This document shows positions 9,686 through 18,600 of a stretch of DNA of 64,000 nt, piece after piece. Position 1 is the first letter of the stretch. Every line of letters begins with the position of its first letter. The stretch is taken from NCBI RefSeq assembly GCF_003018115.1, contig NZ_CP027457.1. One strand, given 5' to 3'. This DNA comes from Escherichia coli. Its GTDB lineage: Bacteria > Pseudomonadota > Gammaproteobacteria > Enterobacterales > Enterobacteriaceae. A program made the position numbers.

Positions 9686-12600
9686 TCAGCAACAGCGCAC
9701 ACCAGGTGGCGCTCATGCCGGAACGTCGCCAGCGAAACAGACGGTGATGAAAACCGTAATAATGCATCAGACGACCAGCAAGCAAAACGATGCCGCAAAT
9801 ATGCACCATCCAGGTTTCTGCGCCATTCATTTCCATAAACAGCATCAGCACAATCGCGATGGGAATATATTCCACCGCGTTACCATGAATGCGAATAGCG
9901 CTTTGCAGTTCGCTAAAACCGCCGTCGCCATAGGCAACGCGGTACTGCATTCGCAGGCGAACGACATCAAAAGAGAACTTCATTAATAACAACGCACCTA
10001 AAACGGCATACAGCGCGCTTACCATACAAACTCCCTTTAAAATGGCCGATGGCACCTGTCTATGATAGGTGGCAAATTCAGAAAAGAGAAGATTGCTGTG
10101 GAATAGCCGGAACTGCTCCGATCTCTGGAAGCATTTTACGTAAGTCTTCCCACAGGGTATGTACCAGTTCCGGGGCCTGGGCAATATCTGGCGTATGTAA
10201 AAAAAGATAAGGCGTAGTGGTCTGATGCCACTGCGCTAATTTTTGTAACCAGACCTGAAATAATTCCCGGTTTTGCGTCATATCATCACTACCGATAAAA
10301 CGGATCAGCGGATTTGTCGCCGTCAGTACAGCATGTACCGGAACTTTAGGTTTTTTTCGTTGAGCGTCGCGAATAGCTTCACTGTGTGGACGTGCTGCAT
10401 GAACCGGGCGGCTGTCTAAAATCACCCGATTAACGCCGCGCTGATGTAAACCGCGATTAAGCGTTTGTTCCTCTTCCCCTTTGGCGAAAAACTGTGGATG
10501 GCGGACTTCCACACCATAATTAAATTCGCCAGGGAGAGAATCGAGAAAATGCCAAAGCGCAGGCAGCTCCCGTGGGCCGAATGTGGCAGGCAGTTGCAGC
10601 CAGTATTGCCCAATGCGCGGAGCCAACGGTGACATGCGGGTCAAAAATTCAGTCACTAAATCATCGCAATGTCGTAATGCTGCCTGATGCGAAATGGTCG
10701 CCGGAAACTTAAAACAGAAGCGGAAGTCATCTGTGGTCTGTTCACGCCAGCGCAGGACAACCTCGGGTTTCGGCAGGGCGTAAAGCGTGGTGTTGCCCTC
10801 CACGCAGTTAATGTGACGGCAACTACCATTAAAATAACTGATATTTAAAGATATTATTTCAGAGTCTGGCTCTATGGGGCATGTATGGGACACTCTCTGT
10901 CAACTGCTTATTGAGTAGTTCTATTTGCCCGATATTGTTATCTTCCATCCATGCACCGTAAACGTTGAATACCATTTGTGCATTTGCATGGCCCATTTGG
11001 TTTGCTATGAAGCTTGGATTCGCTCCTGCCGATAATGCCCAGCAGGCATAAGTATGCCTAGACTGATAGGTTTTTCTGTGCCGCAGTCCTGCTCGCCTTA
11101 ATGCAGATGCCCAGGAATCTCTGATGGAATCTGCTTTATAGTGGTGGCCGACGTGCTGGCATTTTTTCACCAGTTGCGGATTAAAAACAAACGTGCATTC
11201 ATGGTTTGTGCTGCGTCCGAACTCCCGCAGTTTGACATCAATTTGATATTGCTGGTCAAACCTTGTCATTTCAGCCTGGCTTTTCAGGGCATCAACAGCT
11301 GGTTGAACAAGATGAATAACACGATCAGTTCCCGCCTCTGTTTTTGGTAGAGTGAACTCCCCGAGTTTTGTATAATTACGACGGATAGTCATTGTTTTAG
11401 CTTTTAAATCAATATCCTCCCAGGCGAGAGCTATTAGCTCACCGTGACGAATGCCTGTGTATACTGCTAAGGACCACAGGTTTTTCGTTTGTTGATGGTG
11501 ACAGGCATCAATAAAGCGAATAAATTCGTCACGCGTGAGCGGATCTGGCTCTGTTCTTGATCTCTTTAATGGTGTCAGCCCGTTAAATGGGTTTGACCCG
11601 ATATAGCCGTTATCAGCAGCAAATTGAAACATTCCTGCAATTGTCGTCATGTAGTAATTAACCGTAACTACCGATCTCCCTTTAACCGGCGTTGTTTTTC
11701 CATTAGAGAGATTATGATACCCGGTTAACAAATCTTTCCTGATAAACAGTAAATCTTCCTTTGTTACAGACGAAGCAAGACGTTTTTCCCCTATGCGAGG
11801 AAGCATGTTTCTCACCACGGATTGATACCGACTGAATGCATTGCTTCCTATCTCTATTTTCTTAAGGTCCAGCCATTTTTCCGAAAGTGCCTTAACTGTT
11901 ATCTCTCTTTTCCCCAAGCCAAAGTGTTTCAGGTTAGGGGAATTAGGGAACTGCGCGGCGTAGTCGAAACTCCCCATTCTGATTGCAAAACAAACGGAAG
12001 TGCGAAGTTCACCTGCGATCTTCCGGTTTTTGGCGGTGTCAGGAACACCGAGGTTTTCTCTGACACGTTTGCCGTTATAGTGAAACCATATGCGGAGTGA
12101 TCCGCCATGGTTTTCAACGCCTGTCGGGTATGATGCGTTACTCATTAAACCTCCCAGACGTCCAGGAGCATTAACAGGTTAACCGGAACTTGCATTTTTG
12201 GCACCTGGTTGTTTCTGGTTTTCGATCCATCGCATAATTTCTTCGATGTTGTACAGGCATTCACTGTAGTGCCCCGGATCACCTTCTACAGCGTAATGGC
12301 GGTATTCTTTTCCCTGCATCCATGACTTTCTTCTTGCCCGCTCAATGGTGCCAGGCTTTAGCCCTGTTGATGCAATGAGGACTCTCTCCGTACACCATTT
12401 GCTGGGGGTTATCTGATAGATGATTGTCTGCATGCCAACCTCATAAAATTTTCATCCACAGCAGTGGCACCACACGTCAAACATTCGTTTCACAACTTCA
12501 CGGCAGTAGAAACCGTCAACATCTCGCGTCAGGTCATAGCGATTGCCGTAACGCTGGCGTACCCATAGCTCAAACGCTTTATTCATTCTTTACTTCCTTT

Positions 12601-15600: not shown

Positions 15601-18600
15601 CCTTCATACTTATCATGGATATTGCCAGTCATTGTTGCTGCTCCTTTGCTTCTGATTTTCCCGTTAACAACCACATCAGGTCACAATTAAGAGCACTGGC
15701 CAGTGGTACTATCTGAGCAGCTGGAACTTCATGGATGACGCATTCCCAGTCGTTTATGGGGTCGCTGTAGGTATTAATCATGCGGGCAAGATCAGATTCG
15801 GTTAATCCCAGGTTTTTACGGGCGCTTTTGATGCGAGCGCCAATACTTTCTTCCCGTGGTTCTGGCACATTTACGCGAATAACAGACGCGCTATCTTTTT
15901 CATCCAGCAAAGAAAGAGGATCGCACCCAAGGACGTTTGCCAGGGGGATAAGCATGCTGATGGTCGGTTCGAACTCTCCGCTCTCCCATTGCAGGATGAT
16001 CTCTTCATCGAGATCAAGCAGTTTGGCAAGTTCGGTGGTCGTTAAGCCGCAGGCTTCACGTTGGGCACGGATTTTTCCAAAAAAGTGACCGTGCGAAACC
16101 ATAGCTTTTGCCTCACATAGTTTTTCTGCAAAAATTGATGCAGTTTCTTCTGTTTTTTGCAGGGAACGCATCAGGCATCTGATTGCATTATAAACCCTCT
16201 CACTTTCTGCTCCGTTTTCTGACATGTAGGAATAGATCATTCCAAGCAGCGAGCCGCCTTCTTGTATTTGTGCTGCAATTTCATCCATCACCTTAACTGC
16301 ATGCTTCATATGAGCCTCCTGTTGTTTTAATTTTACAATAGCCAAGGCGTTTGGTTGTGTCAATCGCTATAGCTATGTATTTTGGGCAGCAAAGAACAGA
16401 TTATGAGAGAAATGAGACGATACGTAGGGAGTTGAGATACAGGAAAGTAGAGCAGCTGCGCAATACAGCTGCCGGTGATATTGACTTATCCGACCCTGTT
16501 ATACTGGATTGACTGATGAATGAGAACTTTCCCCATTATGAATAGATGTTCTTCAGCTGATTCACTTATAAACCATTCCTTGTAGGCCGGATTGTCTGAT
16601 ATAACAGCAAGTTGCATCCCTTGCATTTGCAGGCGTTTGATATGGAAGGTGTGCCCAAAAATAAAAATATATATACCGTCAGTTTCAAAATTTCTGACGG
16701 ATACGTCGACAAACACCTGATCTCCTGCACACAGAGTAGGAGCCATGCTGTCGCCATTAACTGTTATCATCTTTATGATATTTGCTGGCCTGCTACAGAA
16801 CAGGCGTCTTGCGGCGTCATGTGAAAATTCTATAGCATGGACCGTTTCTGCAAAATCTGAAACAAGGAATGTTCCTGGTCCCGCGCTGGCAGCGATATCC
16901 AGGACTTCCACACGAAAAATATCCTTATCATTTTCTTGCGGGGGATATGATTCCTGCGGTGTCAGATTGCAGGATGTGCTTTCTTCTGAGTTCATAGGGC
17001 CAACGCCGTATGATAGCCACTCAGGGCGTACGTTCAGGATATTGGCGATTTCCACAACTTTTCTTGAACCCGTGGCACCATTAACCAGTTTATTGACGCT
17101 CGATTGAGCCATGCCAACTTCTCTGGCCAGTTTTCCCTGTGAGTATCCTCGGATAGTCATAGCTAACTGTAGCCTGTCTGAAAAGCTCATAAGTCCTCCT
17201 TTTTCTGTCCTTTTAGTGTATCGCCTTAGCGATATATACACAAACCGCTTTTTCGCGCATTGCAATCGCTTTATTCAATCGCTATAGTGAATATCATAAG
17301 GCTGGAGGTCGATATGAAAAATGAAGGTATAGCCAAGGCTGTAGATATTGCAGGAAGCCAGCTTGCTCTGGCAAAGCGTTGTGGTCGCGCGCAGTCAACA
17401 ATTTGCGACTGGCTGAATGGGAAGAAAAAAATTTCTCCTGAATTTGTTCCGTCTCTGGTTAAGGCGGTTGATGGGAAAGTCCAGGCGTATGAATTTCGTC
17501 CTGATCTACCGGAGCTTTTCCCACACCCAAGCTTAGCGCACACAGAGGATGAGAAGTGATGGTGGTGATATGAGCGAAAAAATAACTATTAAATACGATG
17601 GGGCAACCATTTCGATTGCCCCAATCACATTAGCGTTCGCTGAGAAGTTGTTGGTAAGCCTTAAAGGATGCGAACTGCATTCTACCTTCGGCATTGATTC
17701 CAATGCCTTCGCTTGTACACCAGGCGATGAACTCGGCTGTATCCGCTTCAACTTTAATAACTCGTTGCCCGCTTCTTTCGACACGCTTAATCAATTTTTC
17801 AGCGTCGTGTTTCCACTCGGTGTAACTGTCGGAGAGCACATCAGCATCAGTAAAAATATTTTTGAGCTCATGATACTGAATCGCATCGCGAAACCAGAAT
17901 AAACCAACGGCCTGAACTTTCATGTCGAACCTCCTTTGGTTCTTTTGTTTATAGGGATCAACAGGATAACTGAAGGAAGGTTCGGCACCAATAAGTACGA
18001 AAGTGCGGAATCTTAAAAGAATTTATCCGTAAGGAGATGGCAGTGAACACCGTAATTTTTAACGGCAAAGCATCCATGACCAGCGTTGAGATCGCAGAGC
18101 TGGTGGGAAGCCAGCATTCAGATGTTAAACGTAATATCGAACGCCTGGTTGCCAAAAGCATAATCCGGAAACCGCCAATGGCTGTTTCCGAGAAAATCAA
18201 TAACTTAGGGTTTAAAGTTCAACATGAGCATTACTTGTTTGAAGGCGAACAAGGCAAACGCGACAGCATCATTGTTGTCGCACAGCTTTGCCCTGAATTC
18301 ACCGACTGCCTGGTAGATCGCTGGCGTGAACTGGAAAAACAAATCCGCAAACCAATGAGCCAGATCGAAATGGTTGCTGCAATGGCGCTTGAAGCTGTTC
18401 GCCAACAAAGACGTCTTGAGCAGGTGGAAGAGAAAGTCACCTACGTTACTGAAACCGTCGAGCGAATCAAAAGAGGCACCATACGCGATGGTTATGCAGG
18501 CTACCGTCAGCTGGTAGCGAAAACGGGTATGTCAGATGCGAAATGCCGCAATCTGGTGAACGCATATCAGATCCCTACCGACCCCCATGAGTTCATGAGG

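Follow-up and report, generated by a model that had tools for sequence, protein, structure and literature searches.

We analysed a 64-kb stretch of an Escherichia coli chromosome (contig NZ_CP027457.1), referred to here as the window and providing all coordinates below, which carries a lambdoid prophage, and we centred the work on the minus-strand block that lies between the prophage repressor gene cI and the xis and int genes. This early-left block holds ten supported genes behind a leftward promoter with an operator-like sequence. Its features, from cI leftwards, are as follows (aa, amino acids; HTH, helix-turn-helix; TM, transmembrane; ORF, open reading frame):

16486..17190, minus strand: CI-type repressor (HTH and Peptidase_S24), immediately upstream of pL
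16376..16363, minus strand: operator-like 14-bp imperfect palindrome, ATAGC-TATA-GCGAT, extending over the first base of the -35 hexamer
16363..16335, minus strand: pL-like sigma-70 promoter, TTGACA-17-TATTGT, with 10 of 12 consensus matches in a promoter scan
15629..16309, minus strand: 226-aa tandem-HTH regulator, the first gene after pL
15432..15632, minus strand: 66-aa protein p66 (phrog_4587), its ATG overlapping the stop of the HTH gene (ATGA)
15236..15349, minus strand: 37-aa basic, His/Cys-rich protein p37, with a GGAGG Shine-Dalgarno sequence and tightly coupled to the p60 gene
15051..15233, minus strand: 60-aa protein p60 (phrog_340)
14473..15045, minus strand: 190-aa protein p190 (phrog_1515)
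14312..14419, minus strand: 35-aa hydrophobic ORF, doubtful as a gene
14100..14288, minus strand: 62-aa two-TM hairpin protein p62 (phrog_1130), with a 4-nt overlap with the SPFH gene
13276..14103, minus strand: 275-aa SPFH/Band 7 lipoprotein (phrog_200)
12864..13235, minus strand: 123-aa DUF5406 protein (phrog_3409)
12590..12832, minus strand: 80-aa DUF4222 protein (phrog_285)
12452..12586, minus strand: 44-aa protein p44, with a C-terminal CHCC motif (phrog_3871)
12179..12433, minus strand: xis (DUF1233, annotated xisR), at the distal end of the same transcription unit
10859..12145, minus strand: int, also at the distal end of the transcription unit and abutting a truncated yecE

The pL-like site is the top-scoring promoter-like site that the scan found within positions 12000-17600, and about 25 nt past it an AGGAGG Shine-Dalgarno sequence is followed by the ATG of the 226-aa gene. 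The operator-like sequence has a counterpart at the rightward promoter (pR), where its 11-mer CTATAGCGATT reappears inverted as AATCGCTATAG at 17277-17287, over the -10 element, and a perfect ATCGC-N4-GCGAT is present at 17220-17233; we estimate at about 0.007 the chance that two regions of about 120 bp have an exact 11-mer in common. Between the cI stop (16486) and pL (16363) there are about 120 bp with no ORF.

Within the block, stops and starts overlap or nearly abut, and the series of genes runs on into xis and int. Purifying selection is seen across p190, p37, p44 and p66, with ratios of non-synonymous to synonymous differences (pN/pS) of 0.13-0.36. The 35-aa ORF is unsupported both as a gene and as a type I toxin: it is not preceded by a Shine-Dalgarno sequence, its exact sequence was never called among 15 billion proteins and, although it is kept in 22 of 22 loci, it shows 0-1 synonymous against 3 non-synonymous differences. 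An antisense promoter-like site at this ORF is a consensus match only, and an Rfam scan of 12000-18000 gave a single sub-threshold chance match.

The functions that define the early-left region of lambda were not found. When the whole window was searched by tblastn with 23 lambda early proteins, including exo, bet, gam, kil, cIII, ea10, ral, sieB, N, rexAB, cII, ea22 and ea8.5, only int was recovered (E = 1e-4), every other query giving an E value of at least 0.2, and int was also the sole match when the operon proteins were compared with lambda proteins by phmmer. PHROGs, NCBIfam and precomputed Pfam assignments placed no operon protein in a recombination (Red), anti-RecBCD (Gam), Kil, CIII or N family. 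A search for nut sites returned a lone boxA-like octamer, TGCTCTTA at 15695, inside the HTH coding sequence, and no boxB hairpin. The minus-strand terminator-like sites that were predicted fall within coding sequences and none is intergenic; since no such site separates the genes, read-through to xis and int in the absence of N is plausible. Earlier work has described Shiga toxin (Stx) phages without N, CII and CIII (PMC8044961).

These results agree with most of what an earlier note, made from the sequence of the window, had reported, namely the near-consensus leftward promoter, the approximately ten minus-strand genes between cI and xis/int, the 226-aa double-HTH protein and the lack of exo, bet, gam, kil, cIII and N homologues; assignment of the proteins to ordinary recombination or antitermination families, which the note had named as the finding that would count against it, did not emerge from the homology searches. 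Two of its descriptions need amending. What it called an operator half-site is indeed operator-like, but it is a full imperfect palindrome that recurs at pR, and although the block is mostly of unknown function, to say that it is made of unknowns overstates the case, because four of the proteins belong to named families (SPFH/Band 7, DUF5406, DUF4222, which is the RgdR family, and XRE HTH).

The architecture of the operon was surveyed in 80 IMG/VR loci carrying a p190 homologue. All 80 contain p190, p60, p37 and p66, whereas the cassette formed by p62, the SPFH gene and DUF5406 (together with the doubtful 35-aa ORF) is present in about a quarter; in the remaining loci this slot holds 1-3.6 kb of other cargo, including a MarR-like winged-helix protein, a membrane protein and coiled-coil proteins that by eye appear Ea22-like. 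DUF4222, p44, xis and int come next in most of the loci that extend far enough, and breakpoints recur at approximately 16065, approximately 14487 and 12688-12832. This comparison of constant genes with a replaced cassette resolves the operon into a head that is constant, a slot with exchangeable content and a tail. Three prophages illustrate the alternative cargo (L040, 6593-10007; L052, 6593-10208; L036, 6593-9066), which among them includes the MarR-like winged-helix protein, a membrane protein of 100 aa, several paralogous coiled coils of the Ea22-like type (by eye) and a 27-aa TM peptide encoded directly upstream of DUF4222.

The head module begins with the 226-aa regulator, in which an N-terminal domain of about 80 aa is followed by two XRE-type HTH domains (Pfam HTH_3 at residues 80-131, E = 2e-10; HTH_19 at 157-219, E = 0.003); a DicA-like match at 153-221 stays under its cut-off, and the 434 repressor aligns to 155-221. 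The N-terminal domain was confined to loci that share the cI allele, homology to most relatives breaking at the 16065 breakpoint, which places this domain in the immunity cassette. The neighbouring p66 co-varies with the HTH allele (pN/pS 0.13-0.27). A relationship between p66 and the N-terminal domain of the regulator, both of which match phrog_4836, was considered and rejected, as the two do not align.

On sequence grounds p37 is to be regarded as a real gene. It is intact, with start and stop, in all 79 related loci, has a pN/pS of 0.21-0.36 at pS values of up to 0.6 and is called in O111:H- 11128 (ECO111_2446) and in Stx2_EH2201; the Prokaryotic Genome Annotation Pipeline (PGAP) did not call it in the identical RefSeq genome, and PHROGs has no family for it. 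The following gene product, p60, has weak similarity to antirepressor families, in their C-terminal parts, and a p60 homologue sits near a p190 homologue in Klebsiella phage KPP5665-2. For p190 itself there is no Pfam family; its own family is small and restricted to Enterobacterales-type prophages, and homologues in Klebsiella and Aeromonas phages occupy the same repressor-to-xis position. Its predicted structure is confident (predicted local distance difference test, pLDDT, of 95) and has no informative fold match, and sequence searches of the PDB with p190, DUF5406, DUF4222, p60 and p66 returned nothing significant. The p190 allele of the window ends in ...GMPEGQ (14473-14485) and is without the C-terminal ...P-x-x-H tail, whose terminal His is near-invariant in the family alignment; the recurrent breakpoint at about 14487 lies just upstream of this C-terminus.

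The slot is occupied in the window by the membrane cassette. The SPFH protein carries PF01145 (Band_7; precomputed Pfam for the identical protein), as do 120 of the 120 listed homologues, and has a C-terminal coiled coil and a lipobox, LVGC, followed by Asp at position +2, the Cys and Asp being kept in 97 of the 120 closest homologues. Lipoproteins with Asp at +2 avoid the Lol pathway and are retained in the inner membrane, and on this rule the SPFH lipoprotein is predicted to be held there facing the periplasm, in the same topology as HflK and HflC. These two proteins are also its nearest characterised relatives, although the similarity is weak (HflC, 24.9 bits against a cut-off of 134.4; HflK, 22.7 against 159.4; PDB E = 7e-4) and falls mostly in the C-terminal half, over the distal SPFH region and the coiled coil (residues ~105-240); with scores so far under the NCBIfam curated cut-offs, the protein does not classify as an HflK or HflC equivalog. 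Nor does the pair qualify as an SPFH-NfeD operon, p62 consisting of two hydrophobic helices with no Pfam family recorded. The p62 stop overlaps the SPFH start, and the two products may assemble into an HflK/C-like structure on the inner membrane's periplasmic face.

SPFH homologues were detected by tblastn in 667 phage records, including virulent N4-like, phiCbK-like, Kayvirus, crAss-like and haloarchaeal viruses. A small multi-TM gene runs over the start of the SPFH gene in Erwinia phage S6, phiCbK and Pseudomonas phage Hali, a short motif being common to p62 and the small proteins of S6 and Hali, and in Kayviruses the SPFH gene mbpS is reported to lie close to a small membrane-protein gene, mbpV (PMC7150955). 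The occurrence of the pair in strictly virulent phages points to a role in lytic growth or productive infection. The literature that we found on phage SPFH proteins holds descriptive mentions only and no functional study. One cluster of SPFH homologues (P0197; 347 aa, 8 member sequences), called as one protein, has an N-terminus resembling the two-TM partner, which is either a fusion or a frameshift call; if real, the fusion would support a physical partnership of the two proteins.

The SPFH gene also occurs in P1-like plasmids, in the dmt-ban interval, directly upstream of dnaB (ban) and on the same strand, an interval that in P1 is transcribed from the C1-controlled promoter Pban. About 200 plasmids of E. 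coli, Salmonella and Shigella carry an SPFH gene of about 86% identity; they are mostly non-mobilizable, and those listed measure approximately 92-120 kb. In the P1-like IncY plasmid pEC2_5 (L009, 3967-4794) the gene lies between a dam-type methyltransferase gene and dnaB (ban), a position that plp, upl and tciABC occupy in P1. Identity of the SPFH lipoprotein with P1 Plp was rejected: plp encodes 125 aa, and the SPFH gene replaces plp/upl/tci in the IncY plasmids.

For the DUF5406 protein the structural model has a pLDDT of 84 and no informative fold match. Homologues are found near integrases in Stutzerimonas and Serratia prophages that have no SPFH gene, and its standing alone there and in locus L090 led us to reject it as an obligate SPFH partner. 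In the tail, the 80-aa protein belongs to PF13973 (DUF4222; precomputed Pfam and PGAP name), in which it is only distantly related to RgdR, and p44 is under purifying selection (pN/pS 0.2-0.3).

To the left of the prophage lie cmoA, yecN and the truncated yecE (8846-10893), followed by the minus-strand int and xis; to the right, we read the ORF translations as potB, potA, pepT, roxA (ycfD) and phoQ (57831-63997). In K-12 the two sets of loci are far apart. The prophage of E. coli W24 matches the window at 98.5-99.7% identity up to about 55700, and its right flank is ompW/yciE. Because the flanking loci are distant in K-12 and the right flank of W24 differs, the mismatched flanks suggest inversions, or hybrids that arose when prophages at different attachment sites recombined. 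Carried by the near-identical W24 prophage are a Q antiterminator, head and tail genes of lambda-like type, several of the tail genes being frameshifted, and a replication module with DnaC-like and DnaB proteins. In the window, the toxin genes are:

26157/26166-27113, plus strand: stx1A, Stx1 subunit gene
27123-27392, plus strand: stx1B, Stx1 subunit gene

The presence of both genes makes this an Stx1a-converting prophage, and the GC content falls locally to 0.41 over the toxin region (26157-27392). The early-left interval itself is 100% identical to the E. coli W24 RefSeq chromosome and 99.7-99.9% identical in five further RefSeq genomes; parts of it are carried by 1199 of 5426 complete E. 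coli genomes, and at least 80% of it by 60. Among collected phages, Stx2a- and Stx2d-converting phages match at about 94% nucleotide identity over 84% of the block only, and phiP27 matches at 88%, the counterparts being its ORFs L03-L10, which are annotated as unknown. Beyond the repressor, a 97-aa gene (phrog_4753; 17630-17923, minus strand) lies convergent with cro within the rightward early operon. It has no PADLOC match, and its orientation fits an independently expressed moron better than that of any gene of the early-left interval does.

Taken together, the results make it likely that the interval represents the early-left (pL) operon, repressed by CI, of an Stx1a-converting lambdoid prophage of the phiP27 type that integrates at yecE, and the block is most likely an accessory operon whose expression follows induction or infection. 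Departure of CI from the operator over the -35 hexamer of pL would give rise to one leftward transcript of about 4.2 kb, which would cross ten tightly packed and partly translationally coupled genes and continue into xis and int. With no intrinsic terminator predicted in the intergenic spaces, N/nut antitermination would not be needed for this. The transcript would deliver a head module (tandem-HTH regulator, p66, p37, p60 and p190), the slot (p62, SPFH and DUF5406) and a tail (DUF4222 and p44), whose products, once induction or infection has occurred, would serve in regulation, in remodelling of the inner membrane and in manipulation of the host rather than as a defence expressed in the lysogen.

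Several considerations weigh against this view of the block. Expression in the lysogen could come from weak internal promoters or from pRM transcription that reads past cI; independence of N, which we infer, could be offset by Rho-dependent terminators, which are not predictable; the residue at +2 is Y, S or G in non-enterobacterial SPFH homologues, so that the inner-membrane prediction may not generalise; and every biochemical role that we give to the operon proteins is likewise one that we infer. The hypervariable slot resembles the variable, defence-carrying hotspots of other mobile elements, and PADLOC-DB 2.0 (2023), with which the proteins were compared, holds described systems only, a novel defence gene being invisible to it.

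Among those described systems, nine of ten proteins match no family, p37 likewise has no match, and the 226-aa protein matches generic HTH models only (the RmrA N-terminus, capH and similar). The earlier note had seen in the block a plausible reservoir of defence functions, by analogy with rexAB and sieB, and had proposed annotation with profile-HMM and defence-system tools as a check; that annotation yielded no defence family except the generic HTH. We regard as unlikely the explanation that the block stores superinfection-exclusion or anti-phage genes protecting the lysogen, for example through an SPFH pair that blocks DNA entry. It draws on the exclusion genes that lambdoid early-left and immunity-adjacent regions do carry, such as lambda sieB and rexAB, on the hypervariability of the slot between p190 and DUF4222, and on the inner-membrane, periplasm-facing placement of the SPFH module, which would be a plausible barrier to genome injection. 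The positional analogy is nevertheless wrong. In lambda, rexAB is part of the cI transcript and lies between cI and pL, and sieB has its own transcript from the opposite strand, whereas here the cI-to-pL gap holds no gene, all the genes lie downstream of the operator-controlled pL, and the scan revealed no convincing internal promoter in the operon, a layout that corresponds neither to membership of the cI transcript nor to a pL-independent promoter. Homologues of the SPFH pair in many virulent phages argue in the same direction. Ten alternative slot-cargo proteins from other prophages gave no PADLOC match other than a generic winged-helix one, and the slot as a known defence hotspot was accordingly rejected. 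The observation made in the note is thus confirmed and its interpretation partly supported, and a role of the block in defence or exclusion is unsupported here, though individual genes may have one.

A second explanation, to which we give little probability, holds that the SPFH pair mimics HflK/C and modulates or sequesters FtsH, replacing cIII in the lysis-lysogeny decision or acting in membrane-protein quality control. HflK and HflC being its nearest characterised relatives, the HflK/C-like periplasmic-face topology that the lipid anchor and Asp at +2 predict, and a phage without cIII would all suit it. Yet the similarity is weak and largely confined to the C-terminal half, no cII substrate is recognisable in the phage, most relatives with the same head and tail modules lack the cassette, and homologues are present in virulent phages, which take no lysogeny decision.

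It is improbable that the DUF4222 protein is a virulence-regulatory moron acting like RgdR on the enterocyte effacement locus (LEE), the type III secretion system (T3SS) and motility in an E. coli host that produces Shiga toxin (STEC). RgdR (ECs1581), a DUF4222 regulator from an O157:H7 prophage, activates LEE1 and represses motility, its RGD motif is reported to be important for T3SS activation, and variants differing by one residue are reported to lose activity (PMC3378721). Both are small basic proteins of one Pfam family encoded in a prophage early region, and the host lineage is STEC; however, identity to RgdR is about 33% over just 27 residues, QGQ stands in place of RGD, and the protein has 80 aa where RgdR has 99. 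Finally, that the block is decaying, non-functional prophage DNA, as the several frameshifted tail genes of the W24 prophage might suggest, is extremely improbable and was already disfavoured, since all block ORFs are intact and under purifying selection and published, inducible Stx phages retain the block.

Returning to the accessory operon, a broader proposal, doubtful in its joint form, would combine two parts. The two-TM and SPFH pair would be a broadly conserved phage membrane-takeover module, extending from N4-like phages, phiCbK and Kayvirus to Stx prophages and P1-like plasmids, that builds an HflK/C-like cage capturing FtsH or insulating a patch of inner membrane, for instance to exclude superinfecting genomes or control lysis timing; p190, p37 and p60 would be a host-manipulation module of new fold, replacing Gam, Kil and CIII.

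As it stands, this is an ordinary mosaic accessory operon, already sequenced. It lies in Stx-converting prophages of pathogenic E. coli, roughly one complete E. coli genome in five has parts of it, and its genes are probably expressed at prophage induction, the time at which the toxin is produced as well; should one of them alter induction efficiency, lysis timing, membrane physiology or host virulence regulation, this would matter for toxin output and the spread of the phage. Two leads are the most promising, the conserved two-TM/SPFH phage module and the p190 family, with its confident model and no informative fold match, and the more general of them is the SPFH pair, a module that recurs in hundreds of unrelated phages and for which no function was found in the literature searched.

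Compared with known systems, the block is reminiscent of the Eru-type 'non-lambdoid' Stx phages, which are reported without N, CII and CIII and with replication modules other than O/P (Llarena 2021, PMC8044961; Fagerlund 2022, PMC8951638); the window phage, like the near-identical W24 prophage, has a DnaC-like and DnaB module and keeps Q. By term search, the same papers cover the cI-to-stx region and leave the early-left operon undescribed. With HflK/HflC and SPFH-NfeD operons the cassette shares an SPFH/Band 7 domain with a coiled coil, a predicted periplasmic-face inner-membrane site and a co-translated small membrane partner, but in place of the TM helix of HflK/HflC it has a lipid anchor, with scores far under their cut-offs, and the partner is a 62-aa two-TM hairpin with no NfeD domain on record.

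The pL operon of lambda comprises N, ral, ea10, cIII, kil, gam, bet, exo, orf60a-63, ea22, ea8.5, xis and int. The present operon differs from it in lacking any homologue except a distant int, nut-like boxA/boxB sequences and predicted intergenic terminators; it resembles it in lying between CI and xis/int, in its leftward operator-controlled promoter, in ending in xis-int and in the coiled coils, judged Ea22-like by eye, that slot alleles of other E. coli prophages carry. From phiP27 and the yecE- or ompW-integrating Stx1a/Stx2a phages (LC5678xx) it departs in the immunity region and in the N-terminal 80 aa of the HTH protein; the phiP27 p190 homologue is only 68% identical, and the Stx2_12E129_yecE record has only a 38-aa coding sequence between DUF5406 and xis. 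With these phages it shares the gene order from repressor to xis/int and 88-94% nucleotide identity over most of the block, the SPFH lipoprotein being 99.6% identical to phiP27 L05. Public records already contain the block, in phiP27 and in many Stx phages and genomes, and it is a typical mosaic, function-poor lambdoid early-left region.

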